NCBI GenBank assembly: GCA_035084275.1
Contig: CM068766.1
Coordinates: 5,332,001-5,396,000, forward strand
Direction of reading: 5' to 3'
DNA from: Hydrolagus colliei
Taxonomy: Eukaryota
Length of the DNA stretch: 64,000 nucleotides
The notes beneath the pieces were generated by a model that was given only the letters and a program-made list of their open reading frames with translations, did no database searches and was not told where the DNA came from. Below, piece by piece: positions 3,613-53,295 of this stretch (its first letter is position 1; every line of letters starts with the position of its first letter). Position numbers and translations under genes: made by a program.

Positions 3613-4654
3613 CCCTCAAAAATGATCTGCTAATCAACTAATGACCTGGTTGCTACTTACTGCTAGGTAAACAAAGGTGTGTGGACTAAGTACACTTGCC
3701 CAATGTTTTTCCCCAGGAAATTAGCTTAAAACCATAACAAAATGTTCACTTTCTTTTGTTGTTTTCACAATGCTTTTTCCTAAGCCAGAAAGCTGTGTGC
3801 GTAGTGTGTATGAGTCAATTCTCCATATTCTCCACACTGATCGCAAGGTTTTGCCTTTCAACAAGGCAGTACATGGGATTATGGCTGATCTGTTCTCTGT
3901 CTATTGACTTACTAGTTGCTCAGTTGCTACACGCAGGGATATGGCCAAGAATCTGTGGCGGTTGGGTGCTTTTTGGTCAGTGCCTCTGAAAACAGGTTTC
4001 TCCCCAGAAATATATTTGCAGCAGTTTTATTTACAAGCTCCTCTTCAATAATCGAGGGCAAGCTACAGTTTGCTCACCATAATGTTGATTGTTTCCAGAA
4101 TACACCTGTAACTTTAGAACAACATCAAGTAATAGCAGGGTAGTCTTGCATCTGTCAAGAATTCATCCAAATGTATTGAGTATGTATCTCTTAATCAAAA
4201 CCATCTGCTCCTCTTCTACTATGCCACACTATTTGCTGATAGGTGAATTGCTGGCGGTATAGTACAGTAATAATAATAATCCTTGCATTTGATATAGCAC
4301 TTTTTCACTCTTCTAGATGTCTCAAAGCGCTTCACAGTATATACTATAAAGTAGGGAACGGCGATATGGGATTTTTCCGGATATGGATATATCGGTTTGC
4401 TCATACCTGCTTAAACCGATCTATCGAGTTTTTATACTGCGCATACGCGTGCATTCGAAGTGCGCGTGCATTGATGGCGCGCGCGCGCGCATTTATGGTG
4501 CGCGCTCAGTCGCGGTGCGCGCGCATTGACGGTGCGTCCGCACTGACGATGCACGCGCAGTCGCGGTGCACGCACATTTCGAAATGCATGCTCTAGGTCC
4601 AGAAAGTTTGTAATGTTGGTGTCAAGGTCTGTTGAATTATACGATGTTGTTTGC

Positions 4655-5105
4655 TCCCTACCTCCCCCTCTCCTTCTCTCCCTCCTCTCCTTCTNNNNNN
4701 NNNNNNNNNNNNNNNNNNNNNNNNNNNNNNNNNNNNNNNNNNNNNNNNNNNNNNNNNNNNNNNNNNNNNNNNNNNNNNNNNNNNNNNNNNNNNNNNNNNN
4801 NNNNNNNNNNNNNNNNNNNNNNNNNNNNNNNNCCCCCCCTCCTCTCTCTCCTTCTCTCCCTCCTTTCCCCTCGCTCCTTCTCTCCCTCCTTTCCCCCTTC
4901 GTTCTCTCCCTCCCTCTCCTCTCTTCCTCTCTCCTTCTCTCCCAACTTTCCCCCTCTCCCTCCCTCCCCTCTCTCCTTCTCTCCCTCCTTTCCCCTCGCT
5001 CCTTCTCTCCCTCCTTTCCCCCTCTCCTTCTCTCCCTCCCTCCCTCTCCTCTCTTCCTCTCTCCTTCTCTCCCAACTTTCCCCCTCTCCTTCTCTCCCTC
5101 CATCT
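4655..5105. repeat. Polypyrimidine (CT-rich) low-complexity tract containing an assembly gap (N 4695-4832)
   Basis: Repeated ctccttctctccctcc-type units; 138 Ns. Confidence 0.95.
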
Positions 5106-5296
5106 CTAAACACAAAATAGAACACACACACACCAAAAACAAAATCTAGAGATTTATTCTCCTCCATTTCTTGCTTGAAAGTAGCATGTAATGTCCACGT
5201 GTAAATGAGATCTATTACAATAGAAAAGAGAGAGACAGACAGTCTGACTGTTAGAGTTAGAAGCCAGATTATCACTGCTTCTATGTGTGTGTCTGA

Positions 5297-5776
5297 CTAG
5301 ACACACACAGCAGTGATAATCTGGCTTCTAACTCTCTCACACACAAAAATAACACTTACAGCCACAAAATGCCACTTATTTTTATGTAGTCTGAAGTCTG
5401 AATTAATGTCCTTCGCCATTGGCAAGCTCTCCTTCGCTATGCAAAAAGTGACAGCGTTCGTGATACTTTGCCACTTTTTGTCCCCTCTCTGGTACAATGT
5501 TCTCCTCTTAAATAAAGCAGGAATTGTTTGAGCTGCACTGGCCCCACTACCTGTCGCTTTCTCCGAAGTGCTAGTTCGACTTCCTGCTGTTGTCGACAAT
5601 GATTTCGCTCTGAGGGCAGCGTGCTGGGCGGGATGGTGCTGCTTAATGTGATGTCGCAGGTTGCTCGTGCTCGAATCAGATGTCTTAACCAAGACCTTGC
5701 AAACTGTACATCTATACACACCATTACTGACTGCATTGTTTTCAAAGTAGTCCCATACGGGGCTTCTTTTCCCCAT
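5297..5776 (-). CDS. Truncated hAT transposase: N-terminal BED zinc finger only (159-aa ORF)
   Basis: MGKRSPVWDYF...CTVC...TSNLRHHIKQHH is a BED finger (W..F, CxxC, HxxxxH); ITNAVTFCIAKESLP matches the start of the next hAT domain, then similarity stops; no DDE core. Start context atcATGG. Expression unknown. Confidence 0.75.
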   Translation of the reverse strand: MGKRSPVWDYFENNAVSNGVYRCTVCKVLVKTSDSSTSNLRHHIKQHHPAQHAALRAKSLSTTAGSRTSTSEKATGSGASAAQTIPALFKRRTLYQRGDKKWQSITNAVTFCIAKESLPMAKDINSDFRLHKNKWHFVAVSVIFVCERVRSQIITAVCV

Positions 5777-7346
5777 GATGAGAAAGGTAAATTTTCAAAC
5801 TACAATTTTCAGTGATGCGACTTTGTTAAGACGCCACGACTCACGTCGAGTATACACAGTAAAGTGTGCGCGCGCATCGGATGTGCGCGCCCGTTAATTG
5901 TGCGCGCGCACCGAATGTACGCGCATTCCATGCTCTAGATCTAGGAGGTTGCAATGCCGGCGACAAGGTAAGCTGGAAAAGATCGCATTACACTGATAAT
6001 ACCAACAATATTGATCTATTGCCAGGAATGATATTAAAAATATATCGATGTATATTTTTAAAATCGAATCTCTCGATATAACAGTTTTTTTAGAATCACC
6101 ATATCGGCATACCGATCTGAAAATCATATCGGGTTTAATCGAAAAACCGATTAATCGCCGTTCCCTACTATAAAGTGAATTGACTGTATTTATGTGGGAG
6201 AAATATGGCCGCCGATTGCGCAAGGCTGCGTCCCACAAACAGTTGTGGATTGAAGTGACCAAATTATTATTGTTTTTTGAGGGATTAATAAGTAAACTGC
6301 ATAACTCAACCCTGGTTTAACTTGTCACAACCATTGAGTCGCCATACTATCCTGGCAGTTTCCCATTCAAAATATTAATAAGAGACTGCGCGTTACTTGT
6401 TACTTAACCTGTAACTAGTCAAATTCTAGTTATTCTTGTACGTAGTTCCCATGTAAAATTAATTGGATAATTTTCTCTATAAGATGACATCTTGCATTGC
6501 GGATGCCTCCCAGCCCTATCCTGTGACTGGTGCGGGTGCTCAGCAGAAGTTGGGCGCACTTGCTCAAATGAATCGCAGAAGCCTTTCATCTATTGGAGGA
6601 TGCCATGCCTCATATCCGCCTCTGGTCCTATTCTGTGACAGGTTAGGGCGTTAGGCCAAAGTGTGGCCCTACAGTAGATTAGAGGCCTTTACGATTCATC
6701 CTAGCAAGGGTGCCCAATCTCTGCCCAGTGTCTCCTTGAGCCACTGTAGCCGGGGAGAATCCATGCCTAAACAAGCAACTGGATAACTAGTTGCTGAGCT
6801 CTTTTCCCTTAGTTAGCTAAGTTAACCAGAGTTTATTGCACGTCAAATAAAATAGATGGAATCCTGCCAAGTTTTAATACCTCAGATAAAATAAGTCCAA
6901 TCGTATTGTAAATGTTGGGGTACTTGTGTTGTGTTAGACAAAATCTAATACAATATTCATATAATGCAATGGAAATCTATTCTCAGGAAGGCCTTTGTCG
7001 AATGTACATTTGAAAGTCCTTTTTTGTAGTGGTGGTTCTTTACTTTTGGGTGCGGTTCAACAAATGGGGAATAATAAACAAATGCACAGGTATCCCGCCC
7101 CAACCGCGGCCTCGCCAACCTCAAAACACATGCATCCACAGTTTCCTAAATGGGACAATCGTCGCAAACCGCGTTTTGCGTTTTGCGCGTCCGGACTTTA
7201 AATTCACGGGTTTAAATTTTCAAGTTTAGCACAGTGTATGCAACTAGGACCCAGTTGCCATGTCGCAATCAACCAGCGAGATGTCTCTTCTTTCTTAGGA
7301 TTAAGGTAAATCTCTGTTGATTTCTCTCCCACACCCTCCGTGTCGC

Positions 7347-7968
7347 TAGGGTCCGTCGATATGGAAATTTTCCGATTTAGATATATCGATGGGCTCATAT
7401 CGAGATATACCGAAATATCGATATTTTCGGGTTTTGTCATACTGCGCATGCGCGCGCAGTGCGCGCATTCCGGGTGCACGCGCATTCGGGGCCTATCTCC
7501 TCAGGAGGTAAATATCTTTCTGTCTCTGTGTCTCTCATACTCACTCTCTCCATCTCGGTGTTTTTCTGTCTATGTCTCTCTCCTCTCTCACATCCCCCAT
7601 CTCTATCTATCCGTATATTATCACATCCACCCCGTCTCTCCTCCTCTCCCCCGCCGCCGTCCCTCTCTCCGACCCCCACCCCCCCCTCCCCCCCGCCGCC
7701 GTCTCTCGACTCCCCCCCCACCCCTTGCATACCTGTATTTTGTATTCGAGTACTACGAATACAATATGGCGGCTTTGCACCTCGGTCTGTGCGTTGTGTA
7801 TAGAGATGAGCATTCTGGGTCTTGTGGTTCAGTGTGCGCGCATTACGATTTTTTACCTCGATTTATCGACTTTTCGATATATCGATATTTTTGAAATGCC
7901 TATATCGGCGTATCGATATGAAAATTATATCGGGTTTTAGCGATATATCGATATATCGCCGGACCCTA
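7347..7968 (+). mobile_element. hAT MITE (622 bp), related to the element at 4352
   Basis: TIRs TAGGGTCCGTCGATAT / ATATCGCCGGACCCTA (15/16); 8-bp TSD CGTGTCGC/CGTGTCAC; TATCGATA-rich subtermini; same family at 52381 and 53296 in the opposite orientation. Strand is arbitrary. Confidence 0.92.
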
Positions 7969-8245
7969 CGTGTCACCCACTTCCGTGTCACCCACCCCCA
8001 CCCTCCGTGTCACCCACCCCCCACCCTCCGTGTCACCCACCCCCCCACCGTCCGTGTCACCCACACCCTCCCACCGTCCGTGTCACCCACCCCTCCACCC
8101 TCCATATCACCCACCCACCCTACCCTCCGTGCCCATCCCCCCCACCCTCCGTATCACTCATCCACTTCCCACCCCCTGTGTTACCCAATACCCCCCATAT
8201 TCCGTGTCAACCTACCCCCCCCGCCCCACCCTCCGTGTCACCCAT
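7969..8245. repeat. C-rich minisatellite, unit about CCCTCCGTGTCACCCACCCC(C)A
   Basis: Roughly a dozen imperfect 17-23-nt tandem units; one further unit lies left of the MITE (about 7333-7346). Confidence 0.9.
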
Positions 8246-10888
8246 CATGATTTTTCTCTCTCTCTGTGTAGACCAGTCAGTCAGACAGCCTCGCAGATTG
8301 CTGCAGATGCGCCCAAAAGTACTCCCCCTATCCCCATGTATGTTATAACTGTATGTGTTTTTTGTGTTTAGTTTTACTAAACCCAAACTTACTAAACACG
8401 TATCCCCATGTTTCCCATAGGGCCCTGCATTTTCCAACTGCGAAAAAGAAAATGTACTCCCCCTATCTCCATGTTTGCCAACCGCGATCTTACCAACCAC
8501 AGAGGTTTAGAGGAACGTATCCCCTGCGCCTGTATATTTAAATCAGTATATTTTGGATAACTTCTTTAAATTTCCATTTGGTAGCTCTGTTCCTATGCAA
8601 CTCAAGGCCAAGGTTTTGCATTCTTTTTTAATGAAAATTTTCTGTAAACGATCGGCTAAGTGGGTTTTGCGCACTAGAAAATGTTCTGCTTTTGATGGTG
8701 CTTATTTGAAAGGAACTCGCATTTGTTTGTTTGTTTGTCTGGAGAACACTAAACTGTCATGTTCCATTAAAAGATTTGTTTTTAGCAACATTCATTGTGT
8801 TCTATTGGCATGCTGTGCGTAACATTAGGTGAATAAAGAGACATTGTATTAGGACTTTGTTTGCCAAATCACTGTATGCAAATGGAAGTGTGAACCACAA
8901 GTTTAATTGTGGAAATGCAAGCCAATAGACTTATTGACCAGAGAAGAAGACTTATCATTTATAGTATTATTTATAATACCACATTTCATATGTGGAGTCA
9001 GTGATAGTATAGAAGTTTATATGCCACTTCCGTAACTACTTCTCATTTCTGCACAGATCCTCTCCCCTTCCCCCTCCCTCTACACTGGTCCGTTGACGCT
9101 TGCAGCTGCTCTTTCTCTTTTGTGGCTTCTTACCCTGTTGCAGACATCTATTTTCTTAAGATCTGTCACTTATTCTTCTATCATTCTCAACCCAGCTTGC
9201 GAATGATAACTGAAAAATCTTAGCACACGTGGCTGGGGATTGAGGCATCAGAATGCCACACAACTTGAACTCATGTCCATAGGTTGTGTAGTTTAGGTCT
9301 TATTTTCTCCCCTTTGTAAGGCAACACATCCTTGGCTGCTTGTTGATGAATGGACGGATGACTGCAGTCATTTCCAGGGTCTCTGCCAATAATGAGGCAC
9401 AAAGGGTGCTGAAATTTGTCTTGAGCTTTGGTTTGTGGTTGTGCATTCATATGACATCTCTCTCTGTCTTTCCCCACCCCCACTACCCAATTAACTAGCC
9501 ATCTTATTGCTCATTCCGAACTATCCATAATTCTGTGTTTGAATTTTTGCAGTTGGATACTGTTCTGTAGCACTCATTATTAGCTTTTAACTAAGCTGTA
9601 AGTACTCTGACCTCGCCAACAATACCCCAACTAAAATTGGTCATTCATTTCATGGCTGTTTGTGAGACGTTGCTGTGTGGAATTGACTGACTAATTTGCC
9701 CACACAGTACAGTCACTGCAATTTACAGTAAAGCCTTTGAAGAGTTTTCACATGAAAGGTACAACACTAAATGCAAATATTATTATTATTACATCCAAAT
9801 TTTCTGCTGATGAATGCTAAGCTCGGAAACATAGTACAGTAAATTGTGAAGAGAGCATGCAGACCTTAGACAATTATTAAATGGAGTATAATGTAACAAA
9901 TTCTGAGGTCCAAGAATGGCGGTTATGACAATGTTGATGTTTTGCCCACAAAATACTTGTTCAATCCATGTTAAAATATATTCTGTAAAGTGCTTTAAGA
10001 CCTCTCAATGATATGATATAATATAAGGCGCCATATCAAATGCAATGATTCTTATAATAACATATGGAACTAATTAGGAATTCCAAAAGGGTGTTGGAGA
10101 GTGAATTGGGAAGTAATGTCATCAGTGGATATGAAGAAAATCTTTAATGTTATGCTTACAAGGTTGACATTCTTCTAAGGTTGTTGGACAAATGTTGAGA
10201 AAGTAACATGAAGATTAGATTAAATGTTAGATGTCACTCCCAGTTTAATGGGGGTTTTCAAAACTGTCTTATCTTCTTCCACACTCCTCCTTCCTAGTGA
10301 TTTGAACAATTTGCATTTACATTGTCTGACAGAGTGACTGTCCTCCTGACGTGAAAGGCGCTATTTTCTGTACAACTGTAATTTTGTTGTTGTTGATACA
10401 TTCTGGCCTTTATGTAGGATGATGTCTGAGTGCTTTATAGTGACTGAGTCGGACACACGGCAGAGTGATAGTCGGGTGACCATAGGCATGGTCCAAGAGT
10501 TTGATTTTAAGTTGAGTTAACTGATTACCAATCAGTTGACACTATTTTATAAGGGATGGAGACATTTTTAAAAGCTTAAGGAGAGTGTTCAGGTGGCATA
10601 GAATTATGAACTTTTTTCTCAAATGCAATGAAAGTCATTAAAATTGTGTGCTTACGTGCGTGTGCTTACACACTTGTGTGTTTGTGTGCTTGCTTGCGTG
10701 TGTGTGTGTGCATGCTTGCCGTGTGTGTAAGTGAGTTTGTGTACAAATGAGTGTATGTTTTTCAGAGTCTTCTCTTGCCTGCTTTCGAAAAGCTGTCACT
10801 GTAATTTACAGCCCGACTAGAAATGTGCTTCAGGATAAAGCTACAATTTTCACTGCTGATATTCTGCTTCCAATGCTTTTAATTGCAG

Positions 10889-10959
10889 GTGCAAATCACC
10901 CACTTCATCTGTCACGACCTCTCGTGTGAGATAACAGCAACTATCTTCCAACAAGGGAG
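10889..10959 (+). other. Candidate non-coding 5'-UTR exon of the KDM4B-like gene (71 nt)
   Basis: Acceptor gcttttaattgcag|G and perfect donor GAG|gtaagt in non-repetitive sequence; contains no ATG; the first coding exon starts with an acceptor, so upstream exon(s) must exist. No transcript evidence. Confidence 0.5.
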
Positions 10960-11359
10960 GTAAGTAAAAATCAACATATTCTATATAAACAAACACATAA
11001 GCACGAATGAACTGGCTAGTGTCAAGAAGCACTCTATGGTTTTGCATTCGACCTGTGCACACAGTGATTCCAAAACCTATTTGGGAATAGTGCTTGGTTC
11101 AATGTTATGGCATTTGAATATTCATTAAGATTGTATGTATTTACATGGCTGCTTTGGGTCAGAGTACGAGAGTGATGCTTAAGGAATTCAGTTATGTAAC
11201 TACATATGACGGAGAAATTCTGTATGTGAATGGATATTCTTGATGGACTTTGTGAAGTAAATTTCAAAAAGGGTAGGGCACATTGGTCAACATAAAGAAC
11301 ATGATGATGTGAGATCCATTGTGCTCCCCATAGTTAAAAAAAATATTTCAACCAATTTT

Positions 11360-11873
11360 GCTTTTCTCTGCCTTCTCTCACTTCCACAACATTGCCCGAC
11401 TCTGCCACTACCTACCCCTCAGGCTGCTGAAAGTCTCATCAAGTCCAAGCTCAACTATGCCAACACCCAGTTTGCCGGCCTCCTTCATAGGCTGCAGATC
11501 ATCCGGAACTCTGCAGCCCGTTCGCCCTTTCACACCAGGCCCAGCGAACCTATCATCCCAATTCTCACCCGACTCCACTGGCTTCCCATCGCTCAGAGGA
11601 TTCAATTCAAGATCATGGTCTTCACCTTTAAAACCTTCCATGGCCTTCCCCCACCCTACGTCTGCGCCCTCTTAACCTTCTACCAACTTGTCCGCTCCCT
11701 CCTCTCAGTGGGCTCTGGCCTTCTCCGTGTCCCCCGACCCAACCGCGCTACCATCAGTAGGTGAGCCTTTGACCACATTTAGAATTCCAGCTCAGGTGGG
11801 CAACACTGACTCTCCAGTGCCTTGGGATGTCCTCCCAATGTGAAAGGCACTACACAAATGTAATCTTGTTGTT
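11360..11873 (+). mobile_element. L2 LINE 3' fragment
   Basis: ORF has SKLNYANT...LQIIRNSAAR...ILTRLHWLPIAQRIQFKI...FHGLPPPY (L2 ORF2 C-terminus); tail gccttgggatgtcctcccaatgtgaaaggcac...(ttg)n. Confidence 0.85.
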
Positions 11874-12194
11874 TCTTGGGTTTTAAGATTTTACAGGACA
11901 AGTATGTGTCAATTTAGCATGTTTTTCGGGTTATAGTCTGACACTCCAGCACTGAGGAAACACTGATTGTTTTTCCCTTGGGTACCCTTTAGAAAACGAA
12001 TGACAGGTCGAATCCATTGTAACCCCATAGTCACCTGCATCCAATATTACAGCCGCTGCACGACAGCGAAAACAAAAGAAAATATCTGACGTTCAGGTTG
12101 TTAGGTCACCACTAATGTTGGTAAGCACAAGAGTGCCATTGACATTGCCTTGCAAATGCACATTTAGGAAGTCGCATTAGCAGCTTGCACATAA

Positions 12195-12556
12195 TAAGAC
12201 ATAAGATTCTTAAAGGGCTAGATAAAGTAGGCACTGAGGGACTGTTTCCCCTGGTAGGAGAATCTATAACCAGGGTTCACAGTCTTAAAATTAAGGGTCA
12301 GCCTTTTAGAACAGAGTTGAGGAAACATTTCTTCACTCATAATTTATGGAATTCACTATCCCAGAAGGCTGTAGATGCTCAGTCCTTGAACATTTTCAAG
12401 ACTGAGAGACTGATAGATCTTTGAAAAATAGAGGAATTAGGGGATATGGGGATAGGGCAGGTAATCAGAGTTAGGTGAGAAGATCAGCTATGATCTTATT
12501 GAATGGCGGAGCAGGCTCAAAGGGCCTACTTCTGCTCCTAATTCTTATGTTCTTAT
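12195..12556 (+). mobile_element. CR1 LINE 3' end
   Basis: KILKGLDKV...LFPLVGESITRVHSLKIKGQPFRTELRKHFF and tail cctacttctgctcctaattcttatgttctta; same family as 53850-54220. Confidence 0.85.
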
Positions 12557-13583
12557 AATAGTGCTTTCCTATAGTGCCAATCACCTAACCAGCTGGCCAT
12601 TTTATTACACAGTAAATGATAGAAGCTGAGTTTATTGCATTTCAAGTTCACAATCGTTAAGTTGAATCTGCCCTTACGTTTAATGGAGTTGTTCGGTAAG
12701 TTCCTCTAATGTCATGGCCAACATCACTCCAGATGCATTTCTTATTCCCATCATGGGCTTAAAGGTCCAAGTAGCTGTTGTGCTTGGCACAAAATGAGTT
12801 AGTGAATAAGGGAGAGATTTTGAGTGTGTGTGTCTGCGTATGTGTGCACCAGGTAGTGCCATTGCATGACTTGTATTAGTCTGCAAAAGTTGGGCACTAT
12901 CTCTTCTGGAAAAGCAAAGGTTGTCATTTGCCTAGAGGTTGGATTTAAAGTTATGGTATATAGTTTGTGTACTGATCAATAAGGAAAAGTTCTGTGCCCC
13001 ACGGCCACTTGTCATGCACCAATTTGCTCTGAGCATGGTATTTTTATGGGCTTGTCAGTGGCTCTTTGTGTAGCAGGTGCACAAGTGTGCATTTCCCCTG
13101 CCTCTCCACCCCTTCCACAGGTCCCTAGGGAACCTGTAAAGATTGGCAATGCAGCAGTTATTGACTCGATTTGACAGTTGTCTGGTAGCCGGCAGGTTAG
13201 GGCAGGAAAGTACTTATTTTCTGAGGGTATTTTACTCTCGAGGGTTTTGGCCACCCAATCCCCATTATGTCTATATTCTCCGGGTTAAACACCCAACCAC
13301 TTATACTTATCTTTACCTGACAGTCAGAAGGAACTGATCAGTGGTAAGTGTGCTCCGTGTCACTTGCTGCCTCCCTGTGCAGAGATCAGGACCTGAGGAG
13401 TCATACTATGGCATCGATTCGATGCTCCATCCTTCAGCACATTGTTTAAGCAGACTTCTCAACAGGTAAGATAAATGGTTCGGTTTCCCCTTTGCCACGC
13501 TGTGAAGTGGTGGAGATTGTATAGTTTCCAATATAGTTGTTAATAATAATAATACTAATAAGCCTTGCATTTGATGTAGAGCT

Positions 13584-13891
13584 TAATAATAATCTTTGTA
13601 TTTTTAATATAGCGCTTTTCACGTCTTCTAGACATTCCACTACACACAATATACTGTGAAGTGAATTAACTGTATATTTGTGGGCAAAACACGGCAGCCA
13701 ATTGCGCACAGCAGTGTCCCATAAACAGTCGTGGATTGAAATGACCAATTTTATTGTATTTTTTTGGAGGGATTATTATTATGCATGTGTAGTAAGGAAA
13801 CTTGCCCAAGGTTACGCTCTGACCTGACTGGATTTGAATACAAGTCTCATGCTTATAGAGGGGGTGCTCTAACCACTGAGCCAGGACTCCC
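13584..13891 (-). mobile_element. Near full-length tRNA-headed Deu-domain SINE with L2-type tail (representative; dozens of copies or fragments in the window)
   Basis: Minus strand: A-box-like TGGCTCAGTGGTTAGAGC head, core GGACACTGCTGTGCGCAATTGGCTGCC, tail AAAAGCGCTATATT...(ATT)n. Confidence 0.85.
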
Positions 13892-14699
13892 TTTTCTAGG
13901 CATCTCAAAATGCATCACAGAATATACTGAATATACTGTAAAGTGAATCGACTGTATATTTGTAGGTGAAACGGGGCAGCCAATTACGTAGCAGTGTCCA
14001 AGAAACACTCGTAGATTGAAATGACCAATTTATTATTGTTTTTTTTTGCTTGAGGGATTATTATCAGATGTATGGAGTAAGGAAAGTTGCCCGATGTTTA
14101 GTCCTATCTGGAATCGAACCCAGGAAAGGCAAGCTTTAACCACTGAGCTACAGGACTCCAAAACACTGTTGTGCTCCCAATTAAAATACTTACTGTATTT
14201 AAGAGTGAAATACTCAAATTCAATGTTTGAACATAAAGCAACAATATTAAATGTAATAGAAAGTAAAAATAGTATCTTTTGAGTCAACAAAGTTATTGTT
14301 GCAAGCCAGAGAACCTGAGTTTGATCTCCAGCCAGGCGAAATGTGGAGCTAAATGTTTCCTTAATCCACACACCTCTTTTTACCTAAGTGGGAACCCATT
14401 TGTTACTCAATTGGCAACAAACAAAACTTACATTTATATAGCGCCTTTCACGTCGAGAGGACATCCCAAGGCGCTGTACAGTCAGGTAGGACAAGAGCAG
14501 GGTGGGAAGGATCAGGGCAGGATGAAGAATAGTAGGAAAAGTAACTGTATATTAGTGGGCGAAACGTGGCAGCCAAATTGCGCACAGCAGTGTCCCACAA
14601 TCAGTCATGGAAGTGGGACTAGGGGCAAAAGGGGGTAAAGAAGCAAAAGGGGAGTGGCTTTTCCAGGCGCAATCTTGATTGGCTTAAGCCAGCGCCTCC

Positions 14700-15455
14700 A
14701 TACCTCAGGTACTGGGAGTATCAACCTCCATGGTTACACACTCCACCTCACCAAGCCAGTCAGGAACCTTGGTGTCTTGTTTGATCCTCAACTTGTCTTT
14801 TCTCCCGCACATCCATGCCATGACCTGCTCTGCCTTCACTCACCTCCGCAACACTGCCTGACTCCACCACTACTACTAACTGGCTGAAGCTCTCATTCAT
14901 GCCTTCATCACATCCAGACTTGTTTATGCCTGTTTGTCGATCTCCGCAACTCCTCCCTCTGTAGGCTGCAGATCATCCAGGTCAGAACTCTTCATCCTGT
15001 GTCCTCTCCCACACCAAGCTCCGTGATATTATCACCCTCATTTTCGGCTGAGTCCACTGACTTCCCATCACCTAGAGGATTCAATTCAAGTTCCTGGTCC
15101 TTATTTTTAAAGCCCCCCCATGGCCTTCCCACACCGTACCTCTGTGACCTCCTAATCACCCTATCATCCTGTCCAGTCCCTCCACTCAACGGGCTCCGGC
15201 CTGCTCTATATCCCTGACCCACCCGCCCCACCATCGGTGGGCAAGCTTTCAGCAACTCTGCCTCCAACCATTGTAATTCCATCTCACCATCCCTTTGCTT
15301 CGCCCCTCCTTCAAGTCCCACCTCAAGACCCTCTTCTTCGACCGTGCCATCGGTCACCACTTCACCTTCCCTGATCTCGACTTCAGCTCGGGTCCAGCAG
15401 CTTGGGATGTCCTATCGATATGAAAGGCACTATACAAATGTAACTTTGTTGTTGT
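14700..15455 (+). mobile_element. L2 LINE 3' fragment, degraded
   Basis: VRNLGVLFDPQL motif and L2 tail (gatgtcctatcgatatgaaaggcactatacaaatgtaac-(ttg)n). Confidence 0.8.
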
Positions 15456-16022
15456 AATAACCCTTAAAAAAATTAATAAACTCAGTTTGCGGGGCACTAC
15501 TATGCGCAATTACATGTTGTGTTTTTCCCACCACATATACAGTCCATTCATTTTACAGTATTCTGTGAAGTGCTTTGGGACGTCTTGAATGCTTGATATG
15601 GAACTATATCAAATGCTATTATTGTGTTGATTTCCATTCCTTTATCTCCATCTATTGGTGAAAATTCAAACTACAGCTCGGCTCATTGGACTAGAATAAT
15701 CAAACATTGCTGAAAAGGAGTTCCATTCTGTGAAAGTTTCCTCCAGTAAAACTCTTCTTCCTGAAAGATGATACAGTTACTTGAGTTTTGCCCACAAAAT
15801 CATGTAGTAATCCAATGGAAAAAATATGGTCACTCAATGCACGTCTGTCTGTCACTGCTGAGTGCAATTGGCTGCTGTGTTTCGTCCATAAAATATACAG
15901 TCTCTACGGTTTGAAGTGTATCCTGTGAGTCGCTTTTAGACATTTTGAAGATGTGATTGGAGTCGCTATATCGAATGCAAGGATGATTATTAAAATATAC
16001 AGTCAATTCACTTTACAGTATA

Positions 16023-16285
16023 AAACAATAACAGAAATCGCTGGGAACACTCAGCAGGTCAGGCAGCATCTATGGAGAAAGGAAAGTGAGTGAACGTTTC
16101 AGGTCCACAACCCTTTGTCAGAATAGCTGTGCCTCAAGCTCTGCATTTACCCACTGTTCTGATGGAGGGTCGTGGACCCGAAACGTTGACTCATTTTTCT
16201 TTCTCCTTAGATGCTGCCTGACCTCCTGAGTGTTCCCAGCGCTATCTGTTTCTGTTTTAGACTTCCAGCATCGTTTTTGCATTTT
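16023..16285. mobile_element. Penelope-like retroelement remnant (inverted pseudo-LTR pair) with hammerhead-like motif
   Basis: About 95-bp inverted arms (CTCAGCAGGTCAGGCAGCATCT...AGATGCTGCCTGACCTCCTGAG); motif CTGATGGA-GGGTC-GTG-GACCC-GAAACGTT at 16159-16187; flanked by the 17-bp direct repeat ATTCACTTTACAGTATA (16006-16022, 16286-16302). Confidence 0.75.
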
Positions 16286-16586
16286 ATTCACTTTACAGTA
16301 TATTCTGTGACATGCTTTGAGACGTCTTAAAAACGTGATGCGGTGTATATCAAATGCAAGGATTATTATTATTAATACAGGTTACGCCTGGTAGAGACCC
16401 ATATCATACATCCTGACCAGTAGGTTATTCTCTGGTTGGCTGCTGTGAAACTGAGCATTTAAGTAGTCTCTTGAACCTTGCTCGAAGATTTATTAATAAT
16501 AATTTGCTCACTTAATGCGGGTCACTGCTGTACACAATTGGCTGCTGTGTTTTCGCCCACGATATATAAAGTCAATTCACTTGATA

Positions 16587-16794
16587 CAGTAAAAACCCAT
16601 TTATCTGGCATCCAATCAACCGTAACTTCCGTATAACCGGCATCACAAAAAAAAGGTCCGCATTCGATTAACCGGAATTTATCCGGAAAAATGCATTTTT
16701 TAAAACAAAGTTTCTTTTTTGCGTTTTTGGCCGAATATCCGGCACGCGCTTTAACAGGCATTGGCCAGGGTGCCAGATAAATGGGCTTTTACTG
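16587..16794. mobile_element. Tigger/pogo-like (Tc1/mariner superfamily) MITE
   Basis: 24-bp TIR CAGTAAAAaCCCATTTATCTGGCA / TGCCAGATAAATGGGCTTTTACTG; TA on both flanks; inside a SINE. Confidence 0.88.
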
Positions 16795-19589
16795 TAGTAT
16801 GAAGCGCTTTGAGACATATTGAGGAAGTGATAAGGCGCTATATCAAATGCAAGGATTATTTTTTATTTTATTAAAGGAGCTGAGACATTGAGTGTTGATA
16901 GATTATTCAACCTTATAGGGTGGGGTCAGGATAAGAGAGGTTCACTCAGATCTTGGATCTTTTTCTTACCCAGTGCTTGATTGAATTAATTTCTCTCTTG
17001 ACGGCTTAAGAGTGGTCAGGAATGAGTTACCGGTACCTTACTTTCTCACTACAATATTAGTCTAGCTGTTTCCTGGCTTGGGATCGAATAATAAGTAGGA
17101 AATAGTTTTATATGGATTTTACTTTGGAAAATCAACTTGAGCTTCCTTCTTGCATTTCTGACAATACAATGGTCTCTGACAGGGGTTAAAATATACTGCT
17201 GAAAGCAGCTCCTTGAGATTTTCTCAAGGACTTTGAATAACCATATTTATTGTGGCTAAGATAGTTTTAATAGAGAATAAAGTGTTAAACATTTCCCCTG
17301 GAAATGTTTGTTTATTGTGAATTCTAATCCCTGGTTATTTTTGCATTTAGTTTAAATCACTGATTGAGTTAGGAACCGATTATTGACTGATTATGTACTT
17401 ACTTTTGGTGCACTGATATAATAATATGAAAGTGTTTACTGATTTTTATTTACCCTTCTAGCAGAGGGTAATCCATAACTGAACCCACAACTGTTTGTGG
17501 GATACTGCTGTGAGCAATTGGCTAATACATTTGGCTGACCAAATATTCAGTAAATTCACTTTACAGTATATTCACTTTGAGACATCTTGACATCATGATA
17601 AGGCACTGTATGAGATGCATGGTTTTTAGTTATTGTTAAGTGTTGTTGAGCTGGTTTTATGTATCTCCACTCATGCAGAATTACTCATGCTGCACCAATT
17701 CAGTTGGTTAGTTCACTGCGGTGGAACCAGTTTGTGTCTGTAATTGGAATCCGCAGAGGGCAATCCTAACTCTTCCATTGGAAATAGCTTAATTAGCTGT
17801 GAAATGAGAAATGTCTGCTCTGGAGAATGGGTGGGGGGGATGGGATTCTACATTAGTGGAAAGATTAACCACATTGATATGAATTTATGTCTAGCTAATT
17901 GTTAAATGGCTAGATACATAGTGCATATCTAAAAAAAATCCTGTTCTCTTTTAAACCAAGATTTTTTAAAAAAGCTTTCAAACAATTATGTTCTAATAGC
18001 TTGCCAGAATATTGCTGACTTTTTTTAAAACTGGAAATATTGCGACGTCTTTGCAATATTCTGAATAAACCTAAAATAATTTATTGTGTGCTATAGATAA
18101 TAGATTGAGCTGGTTAAGCCTCATATCCTGGCACTTTGAGCTAAGTTTTCACTTCAATACAGTGTTATGTTCTTATGGGCAAGTGTTGCATTGTAGCAGG
18201 TGCTGTCCTTTGAGTGAGAGATTAAATTGACATGCTGTCTGCCTGTTCAGGTGAATGTTAAAGATCCCAAGGCATTATTTATGTGCCTTGGGATCATTAA
18301 TGTCTAGGAGACATTGCTGATCGCAAATTGTTGGCTGTGTTTATCTACAAAATATGCAGTTATTATACTTCACAGTAAATTCTGTGGCTCTCTTCCTGAT
18401 ATAAAAGTTTCTATGTCAAATAAAAGGATTATTAAATAATAATAAATTGGTCACTTAAATCCACAACTGTTTGTGGTTCACTGATGTAATAAGCTCTATA
18501 TCATATGTAAGGATAATTATTATAAATGGCTACATTCTGTGTTGCTGTCACATCCTCCATGCCAGAAGCTAAGTGCAATACAAGTTCACAGGACACCCCC
18601 CCCATTCCCAGCTTAGATTTAAAACGTATAACTGGCCACTTTATATCACGGCATTTTGTGTTAAAGCTTCTTGAATCATCAAAATTTCATAGGTAATAAT
18701 TAAAATCTACATTGAACCAACTAGCCTGCTCGTATTTATGGTCTGATTTGGGTGGTTGGTTTTTTTTGCTTGGTTGATGTTGAGTTTTCTTACAGCAACC
18801 AAAGTTTTAAGTTAAAAATCAGTCACTATTTTGTCAAATGGGCAATTAACATACATTATCGAGCATCTGGTGGTGGGCTAGAGAATGTTAGCCCATTGGT
18901 TTTTCAGTCTTAAATTAGATTATTTTAATTTAACTAAAACTCTTTAATTCTATCTATTTTTATTAAAATTCAGTTTGAATGTGTTGCTGTGGCTGCTTTG
19001 AATAAACGGTAAGTATACTCCGCCTATTTTGCAGTACAAGTGGCCACATTTAATTGGTCTTTTGGATCGTTTTTGGAACAGAAATGTCACAGTTGATAAT
19101 TTCGAACTGATCTATTTTTAAGCATGGAATGCCTGAGTGAGCTGTAGCAAAAACAAAACAAATTGTGTTTTCAAAAAATTAGAACTCTGTTAACGTCCTA
19201 CTTACACAACCTGTTGCAGAGAGTAATTCTACGTAGGAGAGGGAATCTTCAAATGAGAGTTTCACTATTCGGTGAAACAGGGAATCCAGATAAATATGGT
19301 TTACATAGCAGGTGGTGAGAATATGGAACTGACTATCACCAAAGGCCATAATAGCAACAATAACTTGCTTTATATAGCGTCCCTCATGCAGGTTAGTGTC
19401 CCAGAGCTCTTGACAGTGGCAGAGCATGACCTGGAGGTGGGAGGTGACTAGGCACGGTCAACAGGAAGGTCTTCAGGCACAACCTGGGAAGGAAGGGGCA
19501 AGCCAGAGGGATAGAGGAAACATTGATTGAATTGTGCACAAGAGATGGATTTGAGTGAGTGATAATGTAGAGAAAAGTTAGAGAGGATT

Positions 19590-19850
19590 ACAAGCAGGAG
19601 ACCTAGGTTCAATTCCAGGCAGGGCGAAATCTTGGGCAAGTTTCCTTACTTCCCACGGCTAATAATAATCACTCAAAAAAACAATAATTAATTGGTTATT
19701 TCAATCCGTGACTGTTTGTGGGACTTTCTGTGCGCAATTAGCTGCCGCGTTTCTTCCACAAATATACAGTCAATTCCCTTTACAGTATATTCTGTGAAGT
19801 GCTTTGAGATGCCCAGAAGACATGAAAATCGCTATATCAAACGCAAGGAA
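19590..19850 (+). mobile_element. Deu-domain SINE copy
   Basis: B-box-like GGTTCAATTCC, gggcaagtttccttactt, core and gcaagga tail. Confidence 0.82.
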
Positions 19851-21831
19851 TAGAAGACTTAATGGCAGAGCAAGCTCAGCAGGTCTACTAACCTACTGTT
19901 CCTATTCTGTTCAGATCAAAATGGCAACATTTTTTATTGCAATGAGAGGTGAGCAGCTCCTGGTCAAGCTCTGTACCTCCAACTAGTAGAACCATCATTC
20001 AATAGGAAGAGATGTGTGATCAAGCTGTGGGCAGGAAGGTGGTGGCAATGCTCTCACATATTTCATGCTGAGCTACGTTGATCAACAGGAAGCTGGTACC
20101 TGCCGTCCACCCACTGAGGGCTCAAACCCGTGCTTGTCGGATGTCAAGTGACCAACTAATAACTAATCCTGGTGGGGGGGTAGGGGATAAGAGGTAAACT
20201 GGGACTATCAGCAGAATGTCAGAATTGAGTCAACCCTCTGTGGTGGTCTCGGTAGCTCAGTTCTTGAGCCAGTACTTCAATTCCTGAAGTAGTACTTTGG
20301 TGACCTGCTGATGATAGGTAATTGCGATGTCCTCTCAACATGAAAGGCACTATACAAATGTTATCTTGTTGTAGCCAACCTAGCTGATCAGCATAACTTG
20401 AAAGGGCAAATAAGTCACTGGGGACAAGGCATTCTTCCCACTCAGCTGCTGTTAACCCTGTAAGCCAAAGCCCTAATTGGTAGAATGTTCTTATCTGCCA
20501 AATGTGAGTTTATTTACAAGCTATGCAGTTTTAGCTGGTTATACTCTTAACAGTTATCGATCCCAAAGCACACTCTAGGGTTCTAAAGCCTTGATTTTTA
20601 AAGTCATTTAAAAACGTTCTTATCAATTTTTGTCTAATACTCCAAAATTAGCTAAGCATGATGCATTCCTCCAGAGACAGACTGTATGCATTCCAATAAA
20701 TACCGTGCGAATTTCCATGTATAGGTGGCATGCGTGGAACTCTATTTGGTTTGGATCCTCTCAATAATTTTAATAATAATAATTCTTCCATTTGATATAT
20801 CGCCTTATCTTCGACACGTCTCAAAGCACTTCACATAATATACTGTAATATCAATTGACTATATTTTGTGGGTGAAACGCGGCAGCCAATTGCTCACAGT
20901 ATGTCGCACAAACAGTGGTGGATTGAATGACCATATTATTATTTTTAAGAGATTATTACCCGTGGAAAAGCGAGGAATTTGAATGATTTTAATCACTTTA
21001 AAAATCAAAAGGAGTTGTTTTTAGGATGATTTTTTAGAAACTATATACTGTATTGTGGATGATATTCACCTTAGAGTGGGTGAAAACCTGATATCTAAGA
21101 CAGCTTGTTATGGTTTTGCATTCCCTTTGTTTCAGTGTGGATGGATCCTCTGCCATGTAGTTGAGCACTTATCCTGCCCTCTAGTGTCTGATGATTGATA
21201 TTGTTGGCTCATTCATCAGGTTTGAATAGCAAATGTTTTTGTAAAAAAAAAGGAAATATCAGATAAAATAAGCGTCTAGAGATGTGCATCAGATAGGATC
21301 AGCATCTCAGAGTTAATGTTCTGGATGTGGCGCTTCATCAGAATTCTAGTCATTTGGGTAGATTTTGTTTTGAGTTCTTTTGACATTAATTAATGTGATT
21401 ATTTTCTGTTTAATAATCATCTCTGTTGATATTAATACAATTTCATTGCTCTTTTAATTTTAGAAAGTTTTCAAACCTGTAGGAGTTTCCTCTCCTTGCA
21501 TCAGTGCCATAATCCCCTAAAAATTAGGAATATCAATCATAATTAAACAATCTTTTTCCAAACGATGCTTGACATGAGATTTGTTCCTTGCCAATAGGTT
21601 TACAAAGGAATTGCTTGGTTTATGCTCATCCATTAATAAAAAGCCATCTTCTACCACCCCCACTGCCTATCCTCTTTAAATGATCTTTGCAACACTTCTT
21701 ACGACATGGATATTGGGGATGGGAGGAGGAAAGGGACACCGGGTGTATAGAGTAAGGAAGCAAATAGATCCAAGTCACCACATCCCAGAGATGCCTGGTC
21801 CACATCCGAGAGTTAACCGAGTGAAGTCGAA

Positions 21832-22050
21832 AACAACAACAACAACAACAAATTACATTTATAGAGCGCCTTTCACGTCGGGAGGACGTCCCAAGGCGCT
21901 GCACAGGAGGCGTGTGACCCGAGCTGGGAGGAGAGTGTTTGGGAAGGGGTGAAACACGAAGGGGAGGTAAAAGAGTTCGGGGTGGAACAAAAGGCACGAT
22001 CGAAGAGGAAAGTCTTCAAACCGGCCTTGAAAGAGGAAAGGGAAGAGACG
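21832..22050 (-). mobile_element. L2 LINE 3' end with (AAC)n tail
   Basis: (aac)n-ttacatttatagagcgcctttcacgtcgggaggacgtcccaaggcgctg. Confidence 0.8.
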
Positions 22051-22644
22051 AAACGGAGGGATTGTGTAGCGTTTTGTGGACATCCCAGAGAAAAGCTTGT
22101 AGCATCGTTTGCTGCATTCTGGGCTGTAACTGGGGGTTAAAGTGTCTTGTCTTCAAACCACACAAAACAAAAAGGAGTGTGGGTAAGGAAAATATTGTGA
22201 CTATTCCCATTTTTTAATTTACAAATTGAAAGGGCATAATCTGCATTTTTATTTCCGCCTCAGTTTAAAGGATCCGTGACAATAACAATAACAATAAAGA
22301 TACTTTAAATATATGCCTTATTGAATTAATGTCCAGAAGATAGAGGCTTTTTATTTTCAGTTTGAGATTATGAGAATCAATAACAGAGGAGGTAAGAGGA
22401 GACTTCCTTCCTTTGTTTCTGATTTTACCACGCTCTCTTTAATTTTATTTATGTGGGTGCTTGATAGTGGGGTCAAAAAAGTGGCAAAGAGGTTTAATAA
22501 TAGCATTTCATGCAGGGAATCCTGCCAGTCACAGTCGATTTTATTCAGCTTCACCTTGTTGCTTATATCATCTGATAATCTTGTCACTAATTGCAGATTC
22601 AGCAACTTTCAATCTATTGTCTTTACGCAGGTTTCGGCACAAAC

Positions 22645-22776
22645 ATGGGGTCAGAAACTCTCAATACCAGCTGTAAGATCTTGACCTTCCATCCAACCAT
22701 GGAAGAGTTCAAAAATTTTGGGAAGTATATCGCATACATCGAATCCCAGGGAGCCCACAGGGCAGGTCTCGCAAAG
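22645..22776 (+). CDS. KDM4B: KDM4B-like lysine demethylase, first coding exon (JmjN start); exon begins at 22631 with 14 nt of 5'-UTR
   Basis: Acceptor tttacgcag|G at 22630/22631; ATG at 22645 in aacATGG context; encodes [44 protein letters not shown] (KDM4 JmjN motif); donor AAG|gtaatt, phase 0. Confidence 0.95.
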
Positions 22777-23468
22777 GTAATTTGAAATTCAAGAGTCATC
22801 TAAGGCATTCATTTAAGTTCCAGATTTTATTGAACTGGAAATGTTATTTATTTGGATGCTGATTTGGTAAATTCTACAATCATTAAATCCTACCTGTGAT
22901 CCAAGACTCTGAAATATTGTGTTGTATTGCTCTATACATGGTGGTGTTCCTTGCAATTAAAATCTGAATGTGACAGGAATAGACTTCACATTGCAGGATT
23001 GCACTAAAGTGGAGTTCCCTAAATCAGTCCATTTGCTATTTCTTTTCTGTGATGCACCCCGAGATTTATGGATGTACATGGAAGAAATCTACAGGAGCAA
23101 ACCAGGGTTTAGACTGTGGTCTTCACACTTATGGGAAATACTTACTTAATCCAACCTTGGCCAATCGGCATTCAGATTGAGGTTGGCAATTTTTAAATCG
23201 CTTTATTGCTAAGGGGAAAGGGATTAAAGCGACCGTGATATGGCCAGTGTGGAAAGGTACTGTTTTGCTCTCGGCTCACACTGCCATCTACTGGAATGGT
23301 TGGATCTGGATATGGGAGAAACCCAAATGTGTCCTAATCACTTCCTTTACCTGTGATCCTCACTTGAATTGGAGTTTGAGGCATAGGCTGACCGTGCATG
23401 ATGCTTTCTTTCAACCCACTATCTTCTATGTGACTTTTTGTGACCTATCTTGTGTGTTGCACTTGCAG

Positions 23469-23644
23469 GTTATTCCTCCGAAGGACTGGAAACCAAGACA
23501 ATCCTATGGGGATATTGATGATATGACCATCCCAGCTCCAATACAGCAAGTTGTGACTGGCCAGTCTGGCCTATTCACACAGTACAACATTCAGAAGAAA
23601 TCGATGACTGTTGGGGAGTACAAGCGACTGGCTAACAGTGAGAA
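23469..23644 (+). CDS. KDM4B: KDM4B-like coding exon 2 (176 nt)
   Basis: Acceptor ttgcag|G, donor GAA|gtatgg; encodes [59 protein letters not shown]; phase 0 to 2; 'VGEY.RLANSEK' is KDM4B-type. Confidence 0.96.
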
Positions 23645-23906
23645 GTATGGAAGTTTTTAAGCTTTATTAGCAAAAATGTAAACACTGTTTGAATTAAACT
23701 CAAAACCTTAGGAAAATTTCCTTACTCCACACACCTCTATTTATTCAGTTGTAAATAGGAACCCGGTTGTTAGTCGTTTGTCAGAACGCATCCCAGAGGT
23801 AATAATCCCTCAGAAATAAATTGGGAGTGTCATTCAATCCAAACTATTTGTGCGCAATTGGCTGCTGCATTTCGCCCACAAAATAAAGTCAGTCCATTTT
23901 ACAATA

Positions 23907-24428
23907 CAGTAGAAGCACCTTTATCCGTGGCTCGATGAACCGGCACTTCCGTATAACCGGCATGTCCCCAAAAAAGTCCCCATTTGATAAACCGGAATTT
24001 ATCCAGAACAATAGCGGTGGAGCATTTGTGAGTCATTGTTGCGTAGATGCAGTATTTCGGTTTGCGGCTAGTAGAGTCTAAGGTTATCGGCTTGTTGCTA
24101 GAAAGGTTTTAAAGTCACGCTGCTGTTTTTTTCACCCACTTGGCGTCCTCCATGTTAAAAAGAATCATTGCACTATAAATCTCAACCAGTAAAGGTGAGA
24201 AGCTCAAGAGAGTAGTTTTAACAATAAGTGCCAATATAATATTCTGTTATTATTTGGTCTGGTATACACACACATGGTCTGGTATATACATACCAGACCA
24301 TGTGTGTGTTAAAAGAACTTACATTTTTTTGTGGTGGGTTTTCGGCCGCAGGCTGCCTGAATATCTGGCAGGCACTTTAACCGGCATTGGCCAGGTCCCG
24401 CGGGAGCCAGATAAACAGGCTTTTACTG
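23907..24428 (+). mobile_element. Longer Tigger/pogo-like non-autonomous element of the same family
   Basis: TA-CAGTAGAAGCACCTTTATCC...GATAAACAGGCTTTTACTG-TA; shares CTTCCGTATAACCGGCAT and AACCGGAATTTATCC with the 16587 element; retains a remnant of the transposase start (KGEKLKRVVLTI); inside a SINE. Confidence 0.85.
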
Positions 24429-24479
24429 TATATTCTGTGAAGCGCTTTTAAGATATTTCAATGACATGATAGGGCGACC

Positions 24480-47366: not shown

Positions 47367-49827
47367 GATTTAGTTTCACAAGCTTTCAACATGTTTCAGG
47401 AAAATATTTTGTTTGCAATATTGCAATACTGTTTGTAATATTGAAATCCCTGCTTAAAACTGAATGGTGGGTATGGATCCTTTCATGTAGTCTGTCATAT
47501 GTTAGCAGTGTTCTGAGCGCTTTGGGACTTTATTATATTTTTATAATCATTTATTAAAAATAATGAATCCTGCCACTGCTGCAGTTTGTAACATCAGAGG
47601 CTGCTGCCTCACAGTTTACATAAAGCTCTGGACCAGTATTTTTCAGATGTCTCCCACAATTTCATACAAATCTTTATTTATCACTGAATTAAATCAAAAG
47701 TCTCACAGTTTCAAAAGAAAATAATTCTGTCTTAACAACATAAAAGAAGGCTCAGCCTTGTAAAGAACACACACACACTTCCCGGTTGAAATGTAAAAGC
47801 TGCGTTTGTTTGAATTTTAAAACGTTCTCAAATCTGTACCGTTCCTCACTCATTCAACCTCTTGTCACAAATAGAAACTTGAGCTTGCTGCTGTATGACT
47901 GGGGGGGAAAAACTCATCTGGGACCCTATCAGAGAGGTCCTTTTGGCTGCTGAGGGCTAATGCAACGACCGTGTTAATCTTTACATTCCATATTTGCATC
48001 TCGTATTTTCCTGGTAACCAAATCTGATGACTCAAATTTGCTGCATTGTTGCATCCAAAATCAAGGAAGATACCCCATCATATATATTTTTATCCTATAC
48101 ATAGATTTTACCTGTAGTCTGGGTTGACGCTTACTCCAAAGCTGTGCGAGGGAATGTTAGAGGTACTATGCTGCAGATGAGAGGTTATTCTGAGATCTGA
48201 TCTGTCTTTTCAAGTGAAGATTAAGAGAGACAATGGCGGGATCAGTTTCTTTTGATTTCTTTGCTGAAAGTCTTCAAGATAAAAATGGTCATTCACTTCA
48301 TGACTGTTTGTAGGACATTGTTGTGTGCAAATTGACTGCCGTGTTCACCACCAAACACAGTCACAGTCGCTGGTGAAGCACTTTGAAATGCTCCCAATGA
48401 TTCAGTGTTGAATCAAAGGCAAGGACTATTATTATACATGACATAAAGTCCATTTTTGGTTTGGGTCAGTCTCACTAGAGGTGGTGTAGTCAAATCATGT
48501 GGAACCCTACTATAATTTTCATGCAAAACTTTTGCTGAAACAGATGGAGATTTGGTACAGATGTGGTATATCAAGTGCATAAGAGGTCTGGTTAACAATT
48601 TCATTACAGTTCTGTGCGTTTCCAATTCTTGAAATTGCTTCTACCCAGCAATTTAATTTCCGTGTTCAATCTCAGCATATGTCTAAATGTCCAGCAGGAT
48701 AGTGATGTTGTAATTTGATTTTTGTAAAAAAAAACTTATTGTGATGCATGTTGTCGGGAAAAATATACAGTGCAGTGAAGCAAATAATGTCTGATACAAT
48801 AAGTCTTGAATATCAAATACATTCAGAGTATTTTGATATTTCAATGTAGTTAGACGGTGTGGCACATATGTATGAGGGCAGGTAGTCCTAGTGGGAGAAT
48901 ATTTTTGATAATTGCAGAGAATACCAGAAATTGTTTGTTGCTTTATTATTGAGTTCCTCCCCGCCCACCCCTACCCCCACTCCCACTAATTTACAGCTAC
49001 ATAGTAGAATCACCTGTCTACATATTAGTTCTTTATGTGAAGAGATAAATAATATTTCCTTTCTGTCAGGCAGGTAATGTGTTTTAATCTTGAATCTACA
49101 AGAGTCTGTTTATTGAGATGAGACATCAGTCTCCCTAAAGACTTCTCTTTTTTTCTGTCATTGATATATTGGAATTAAAGGATTCTAAAGATGTTGACAG
49201 AACTCTTATATAGCTTAGCTTTATAATCATATTGTTAGATTCCCTGTGGCTAACCAAAATAGAATCCACTATTTCAAAGAGATTTTGTTTTAATTGTTGC
49301 GGTATCAGTGAAACGATTACCATCCACGTCTTCAGTCGGATGGTGAATAACTCCAAATTATAGATGCACATATTTTAATTTTCATAAAAATGAGTTTGGT
49401 TCAGTATTCCAAAAGCTCCGGTTTACCTTTTACACTCAGATATCATCCGTGTTCATATCAGCCATAGCAGCGTGATTGTTTTTCATGGGGTTGAATCTTT
49501 GATAATATTGAGGAAGAAGTCATTTCATATCAACATCAACTGGGGGAGCTAGCACAGCATAGGCACATTATTTGAATGGTCACCTTATGTGCTAATACAT
49601 TATGGCTTTGGATATTTCCATAGAAATATTGAGTTTAGAGATTATGCATATTAAAGTTAGGAATCTAACAGTATGTAACTATTTGATTTATATGAGCACG
49701 CATGGTCAGCCACAGTTTGAAAGTTATGTATAAAATTGTTATATCTGCCACCCAAATTTAGTAGAGGGATTGTAAAAGCCTGGGAGCAAATCGTAAAGTC
49801 CATCCCCAAGCTTCTGTTATCATTTAC

Positions 49828-49970
49828 AAAAATAGAAGTCGCTGGGTACACTCAGCAGGTCAGGTAGCATCTATGGAGAAATGAAATATGAGTCAATGTT
49901 TCGGATCCAGGACCCTTTGTCAGAACTTGTGTTTCAGATTTCCAGCATCTGCAGTATTTTGCGTTTTTGT
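49828..49970. mobile_element. Second Penelope-like remnant of the same family
   Basis: CTCAGCAGGTCAGGTAGCATCTATGGAGAAA...CCCTTTGTCAGAAC joined to TTTCAGATTTCCAGCATCTGCAGTATTTTGC; matches the left arm and the tail of 16023-16285. Confidence 0.7.
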
Positions 49971-53287: not shown

Positions 53288-53295
53288 GTATGCAG

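Follow-up and report, generated by a model that had tools for sequence, protein, structure and literature searches.

The stretch examined here is a 64-kb window (G000:C33:5332001-5396000) of the 1.0-Gb genome of Hydrolagus colliei, and the element in question is a short interspersed nuclear element (SINE), represented in the window by 50 fragments, four copies of which are split by other transposable elements (TEs) close to an imperfect palindrome. All four nested insertions of the original prediction were confirmed. SINE copy 1 (4266..6290, minus strand) is interrupted by a non-autonomous hAT element of 1816 bp with TAGGG terminal inverted repeats (TIRs) at 4352..6167, positions 6290-6168 corresponding to consensus ~95-218 and positions 4351-4266 to consensus 211-295. 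The 8-bp target-site duplication (TSD) of this hAT, at 4344..4351 (SINE 211-218) and 6168..6175, both on the minus strand, reads CTTTATAG on the SINE strand and equals SINE consensus 211-218 bar one change. SINE copy 2 (15993..16375, plus strand), which is promoter-less and 5'-truncated at consensus ~194, is split by a Penelope-like element (PLE) remnant (16022..16287, plus strand) composed of inverted and direct pseudo-long terminal repeat (pLTR) pieces; its 14-bp core TSD, SINE 208-221, lies at 16008..16021 with AAT directly before it and at 16288..16301 with ATT directly after it (plus strand in both cases). The 17-bp duplication originally described around the remnant does exist (16006-16022 and 16286-16302), but the genome-wide PLE junctions presented below define 14 bp, and the 17-bp repeat is therefore the core TSD plus three coincident letters. 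The remaining two insertions are Tigger/pogo-like miniature inverted-repeat transposable elements (MITEs) with TA TSDs: MITE 1 (16587..16794, 208 bp) in SINE copy 3 (16504..16863, plus strand) and MITE 2 (23907..24428, 522 bp), at TA 219-220, in SINE copy 4 (23798..24473, plus strand); neither MITE, nor the hAT, is assigned a strand. The palindrome had been assigned to all four interrupted copies, yet copy 3 is without it: mutation created its TA at 216-217, and a deletion of 7 bp has removed the greater part of the loop along with some of the right arm. All four insertions fall within the gene region of an exon at 23470-23645, which on reading by eye we take to resemble KDM4 histone demethylases in their JmjN region.

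The SINE consensus, 295 nt in length, was derived from 1327 hits in a sample of 1,564,000 bases (14 blocks); the SINE tail is common to a long interspersed nuclear element (LINE), hereafter the partner LINE, the tails of which are included among these hits. The hits cover 7-18% of each sampled block and ~13% overall, and extrapolation from 784 copies in 1.564 Mb gives ~500,000 copies genome-wide. The element has a tRNA head whose anticodon loop carries TGC, followed by a block at consensus ~60-85 that we presume to be CORE-like and then by an A tract, a 3' body, an L2-type stem-loop (231-268) and a TTA tail. As predicted, the imperfect palindrome is present in the consensus, with arms at 211-218 and 225-232, one mismatch and an axis at 221|222, which is the best dyad within the SINE (8/10 pairs); as a DNA hairpin it is weak (-3.9 kcal/mol). 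The axis 214|215 is that of an interrupted dyad with 7/10 pairs. The label DeuSINE given previously was not supported; in architecture the SINE appears to be CORE-type and fits, by description rather than by alignment, the account of the CmiSINEs in the accessible text of PMC5499810, where these are CORE-SINEs of which the 3' 160 bp is common to the DeuSINE SacSINE1-CM. Truncated copies could belong to either the CmiSINE or the SacSINE1-CM family.

Pairing of SINE fragments yielded 231 pairs without a TSD filter, mostly chance associations, and 57 candidates with the filter, still chance for most; for this reason element ends were instead counted genome-wide beside fixed 9-10-nt SINE anchors, with anchor totals extrapolated from the sampled blocks and junction positions tallied by eye, with a possible error of one or two nt. 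The window copy of the PLE, with its inverted and direct pLTR pieces and TSD, has the repeat arrangement expected of an endonuclease-positive (EN+) Penelope-like element, and a longer relative carries, directly upstream of the same pLTR, a weak match to the GIY-YIG domain (PF01541; E 7.6e-4, 20.2 bits, cut-off 22.6). Seven of the eight PLE frames submitted to Pfam gave no match at all, and a reverse transcriptase domain was matched in none of the eight, all of them short and from truncated copies. A degenerate hammerhead-like core was read by eye at 16159-16184 of the window, with one exact regular-expression match in the sample; Rfam returned neither a hammerhead nor any other meaningful match on the PLE. 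A second PLE remnant in the window (49819-49966) has a 13-bp TSD and lies away from the SINE site.

Exact PLE 3' ends number ~3550 in the genome (2820 with a non-C letter at +12), and 46 of them directly join the exact SINE 10-mer at 209. Sense junctions start at 207-212 in 56 of 58 cases (anchor 223-232) and antisense junctions at 219-223 in 49 of 51, with 53/61 and 35/41 at the site for other anchors, and the far (upstream) junction stops at 220-221 in 12 of 15. Together these positions indicate that the same 14 bp, SINE 208-221, is duplicated in both orientations. An estimated 184 sense and 213 antisense ends, or 11% of the ~3550, lie at the site, an enrichment of 223x over the per-base mean, or of ~70x if the site is taken to be 3 nt wide. 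The neighbouring SINE windows are depleted of PLE junctions (2 observed against 12.6 expected at 234-269, 1 against 9.2 at 142-187 and, in antisense, 7 against 13.1 at 243-288). The PLE hot spot on SINE 208-221 is thus real, sharp and family-specific. Weaker PLE sites are seen at SINE 192-205 and in the tail at 275-288, both ending at ATT.

Junctions of this kind might also arise if a small number of ancestral SINE-PLE or SINE-hAT chimeras, perhaps a single one, had later been amplified, and some duplicates are indeed listed: three pairs among 61 PLE junctions, removed before conservation was counted, and nine copies of one MITE junction on contig C40. However, both orientations and several PLE end and junction variants occur, as do three end variants among the TAGGG-hAT junctions. 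In an unbiased check, the sampled blocks outside the window held 46 PLE clusters, of which 4 lay at the site, each differing in structure, and the inserts of five sampled PLE events there (~96, 100, 131, 266 and 1269 bp) have their own TSDs. Because their lengths and structures differ, these events are independent, and amplification of chimeras, which we regard as scarcely credible, is already refuted by them.

The same site is used by the TAGGG-hAT family, of which there are ~15,700 ends in the genome (12,478 counted with a non-C first letter). Of 79 junctions, 47 follow the 8-mer 211-218, which is ~53x the mean, and 4 follow the right arm; ~3% of TAGGG-hAT copies are computed to reside at the SINE site. 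Classed from its non-autonomous ends alone, the family conforms to the Ac/Tol2-like target type, with short TIRs, an 8-bp TSD and a weak palindromic target, nTnnnnAn; on tallying 100 genome-wide flanks by eye, S-T-n4-A-S was present in 30 and an A at -1 in 40. The rate predicted from these 100 flanks, one of which is this SINE site, is 3.8e-4, against 4.2e-4 seen. The TAGGG-hAT hot spot is thus ordinary, as its usual target consensus predicts, and a weak preference becomes visible as a hot spot because the genome holds some half a million copies of the site that matches it best. Further TAGGG-hAT copies lie in the window at 7346-7968, outside any SINE and with an 8-bp TSD containing one mismatch, and at 52381-53571.

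Clustering beyond chance, which the original prediction had extended to all the elements involved, holds genome-wide for the PLE and the TAGGG-hAT but not for the MITE. The MITE, with 15,048 ends in the genome, has a TA TSD and TIRs starting with CAGT, as for a Tc1/mariner-pogo MITE; the label Tigger-like is our assumption. Among 86 junctions upstream of anchor 234-242, nine of which are one repeated event, 25 were at TA 219-220, 23 at TA 221-222 and none at TA 214-215, and beyond that anchor, within the next 45 nt on its downstream side, a further 124 were counted; ~14 of 51 junctions use an upstream TATA. The loop TAs are hit at 1.3x the average TA, or up to ~1.9x counting SINE-type anchors alone, below the 2.6x that a generic R-TA-Y preference predicts, and the MITE was rejected as a user of the hot spot. 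The nine copies of one MITE-SINE junction on a single contig (G000:C40:330928-1196098) suggest that a large repeat, tandem or segmental, is present there. SINE 214-220 reads TA-CAG-TA, identical to the MITE's own end and to the Tc1/mariner excision footprint; this is perhaps a coincidence, or else the relic of an ancient excision from the master copy. A Charlie-type hAT was found at the PLE/TAGGG-hAT site in 0 of 25 junctions, 21 of which were at a consensus site of its own at SINE 243-250 (TCTAGA variant), and one such event was seen in sampled block L158. With two of four families using the site, the SINE is not a general landing pad. Single cases of other nested elements were noted: a SINE nested in a SINE at ~221 with a 7-bp TSD (L041:9109-9421), and a LINE tail inserted at ~220 (G000:C35:1664963-1665030).

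The original prediction proposed that the palindrome, extruded as a hairpin or cruciform or behaving as a fragile site, draws unrelated elements. Its axis is the best dyad that the SINE contains, the deduced PLE nicks fall at the loop centre and near the stem base, and the GIY-YIG family includes the junction resolvase Slx1 (accessible text of PMC3045582). However, the hairpin is mismatched and of low stability, and the insertion peaks of the PLE and the TAGGG-hAT do not lie on its axis: the PLE TSD (208-221) and the hAT TSD (211-218) are both centred on 214|215, off the hairpin axis at 221|222. A cruciform should be used symmetrically, yet the mirror PLE site, 222-235, is absent among the 58 + 51 junctions listed, and the hAT follows the left arm 47 times against 4 for the right. 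PLE ends are rarer than expected in the stronger stem-loop (231-268); the right arm is intact in 26/50 PLE-hit copies and 96/168 background copies (p=0.52); and MITE insertions at the on-axis TA (23) are no commoner than at the off-axis TA (25). Deletions, expected to peak at a fragile site, are spread evenly over 191-230, with 6.3-6.8 per 10 nt in every 100 copies. Given the differing axes, the unused mirror site and the lack of a deletion peak, we consider the cruciform and fragile-site models improbable and largely refuted as causes of the clustering.

Our current working hypothesis, to which we would assign a probability of roughly 0.7, is that SINE 205-224 (AAT-14 nt-ATT) is favoured as plain sequence that matches each enzyme's symmetric target preference, and not through folding. 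The AAT/ATT pair at 14-nt spacing occurs once in the consensus, at 205/222, where it flanks the PLE TSD, and the accessible text on the PLE protein of the anole describes cleavage at a 5'-ATT-3' motif on each strand by a predicted dimer (PMC11167929). By analogy, a dimeric PLE protein would nick both strands, in each case immediately 5' of an ATT and with 14 nt between the nicks, and reverse transcription could be primed from either of the resulting 3' overhangs. The hAT transposase, for its part, would recognise the weak palindrome that it normally favours (S-T-n4-A-S, preceded by A and followed by T), and every other family would take its own best site in the SINE. On this reading the site did not evolve as a trap; by its own spread the SINE made some half a million copies of a good target.

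Several observations weigh against this interpretation where the PLE is concerned. An ATT lies 14 nt away in 129 of ~1000 PLE ends (an estimated total), and among 100 such ends listed ~44 are the SINE site itself and ~12 the SINE tail; outside the SINE, ATT at +14 is just ~2x enriched, and ATT alone is too weak. The flanks of non-SINE TSDs (18 TSDs found among 51 sampled PLE clusters) match A-R-Y / R-Y-T in about half of the half-sites. Conservation does not differ significantly, with ATT 222-224 conserved in 38/50 PLE-hit copies against 131/168 in the background (p=0.85) and AAT 205-207 in 32/35 against 100/126 (p=0.14), a tendency at most. A dyad like that at 214|215, with 7/10 pairs, also occurs elsewhere in the SINE, and the PLE nick positions are themselves deduced from TSDs. 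Taken together, the weak ATT effect, the half-matched half-sites, the non-significant conservation and the non-unique dyad mean that for the PLE the model requires an extended motif or a contribution from DNA shape, and as it stands accounts for only part of the specificity.

One way to account for this remainder is that the PLE evolved a true specificity for the SINE as a safe harbour, reading sequence beyond the generic motif. The placing of ~11% of copies at one site, at 70-220x, far exceeds the effect of the ATT pair elsewhere, and exact targeting by PLEs does exist, at 28S rDNA in spike mosses (accessible text of PMC8557442). Nevertheless ~85-89% of copies lie elsewhere, and the tail of the partner LINE, which has a similar site without this hairpin, is used as well: in a test that bears out a prediction of the plain-sequence model, 6 of 10 PLE junctions there were in the predicted register, at a rate of ~8e-5 per site against 4e-4 at the SINE site, about a fifth. 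Moreover, the host copy in the window retains just ~14 nt upstream of the site, which argues against a need for more of the SINE and makes its RNA polymerase III promoter dispensable for PLE targeting. We therefore think evolved specificity unlikely. Slightly less so, though still doubtful, is a reading in which the PLE is semi-site-specific: its dimeric endonuclease would cut twice at an extended symmetric sequence, leaving 3' overhangs of 14 nt, and would have adapted to the commonest SINE as a safe harbour; if true, this would be a TE-on-TE targeting strategy undescribed for vertebrate PLEs. Alternatively, PLE RNA might pair with the target to guide insertion, as the pLTR consensus contains a 7-mer, TCACTTT, equal to the start of the TSD, as well as a T-rich run at its end, and sense junctions show 0-3 extra T. 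Antisense insertions without such homology are, however, equally frequent (213 against 184), and priming by the anole protein takes place at an RNA site that lacks homology (accessible text of PMC11167929), making guidance by RNA very unlikely.

Whichever enzyme property underlies the PLE peak, the claim that the SINE spreads a preferred integration site holds, with ~500,000 copies used independently by two unrelated superfamilies. The accompanying suggestion that the SINE is a sink for other TEs does not: the ~13% of sampled DNA that is SINE holds an estimated ~15% of PLE ends (hot spot 11%, tail and secondary sites ~4%, scaled). The SINE concentrates insertions internally and does not draw them from the genome; there is no genome-wide sink, and the PLE/hAT hot spot does not show a new protective one. 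What the SINE does is to make family-specific hot spots out of enzyme preferences that are themselves weak, a point of importance for the dating of TEs by nesting and for the use of parallel insertions as markers.

Among known systems, the closest counterparts of the SINE itself are the CmiSINEs (SINE2-1_CM, SINE2B-1_CM) and SacSINE1-CM; an Ala-tRNA head, a CORE-like body, a 3' part common to a DeuSINE, an L2-derived tail and several hundred thousand copies are described, an account that the present SINE appears to fit; the main text of that paper makes no mention of 'nested', 'Penelope' or 'palindrom' (PMC5499810). Hot spots for TEs within TEs are known already: in the accessible text of Levy, Schwartz and Ast (PMC2836564) most human TE families have defined insertion positions within the TEs that they target, and MER1 hATs enter the CORE-SINE MIR3, in either orientation, at the same two positions, much as seen here. 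Unlike in that human data set, which has no PLEs, a retroelement and a DNA transposon here share one axis, and about a tenth of a PLE family is involved. Tol2 and the Ac-group hATs likewise have a weak 14-bp palindrome around an 8-bp TSD, the Tol2 target consensus being TNA(C/G)TTATAA(G/C)TNA, most positions of which the SINE site matches; unlike in the accessible description of these hATs (PMC4825651), the best-matching target here occurs in about half a million copies.

For PLEs, AT-rich targets and 8-10-bp TSDs are given in the accessible text of PMC3846280, and the searched literature contained no account of a SINE with a PLE hot spot, with most subscription papers, the Repbase reports and the supplements of PMC5499810 outside reach. 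PAc, a Poseidon PLE of Anolis carolinensis, matches the behaviour proposed for the present PLE in that ATT is cleaved on both strands by a predicted dimer at AT-rich targets, and in PAc both strands are extended; the work on PAc concerns its own junction in vitro, and the text accessible describes neither a genomic hot spot nor an extended motif, nor a stagger fixed at 14 nt (PMC11167929). The PLE target literature, in its accessible parts, describes an AT-rich or ATT preference, to which hundreds of independent insertions on 14 bp in both orientations add the geometry of the two cuts, and the SINE site is a natural substrate for the existing in vitro PLE system. A strong insertion bias, as here, is also described for Naiad, Hydra and Neptune (microsatellites) and for Chlamys of spike mosses (28S rDNA); unlike in those elements, as they appear in the accessible text of PMC8557442, the target here is a non-repetitive 20-mer in a SINE, and it receives a minority of insertions.

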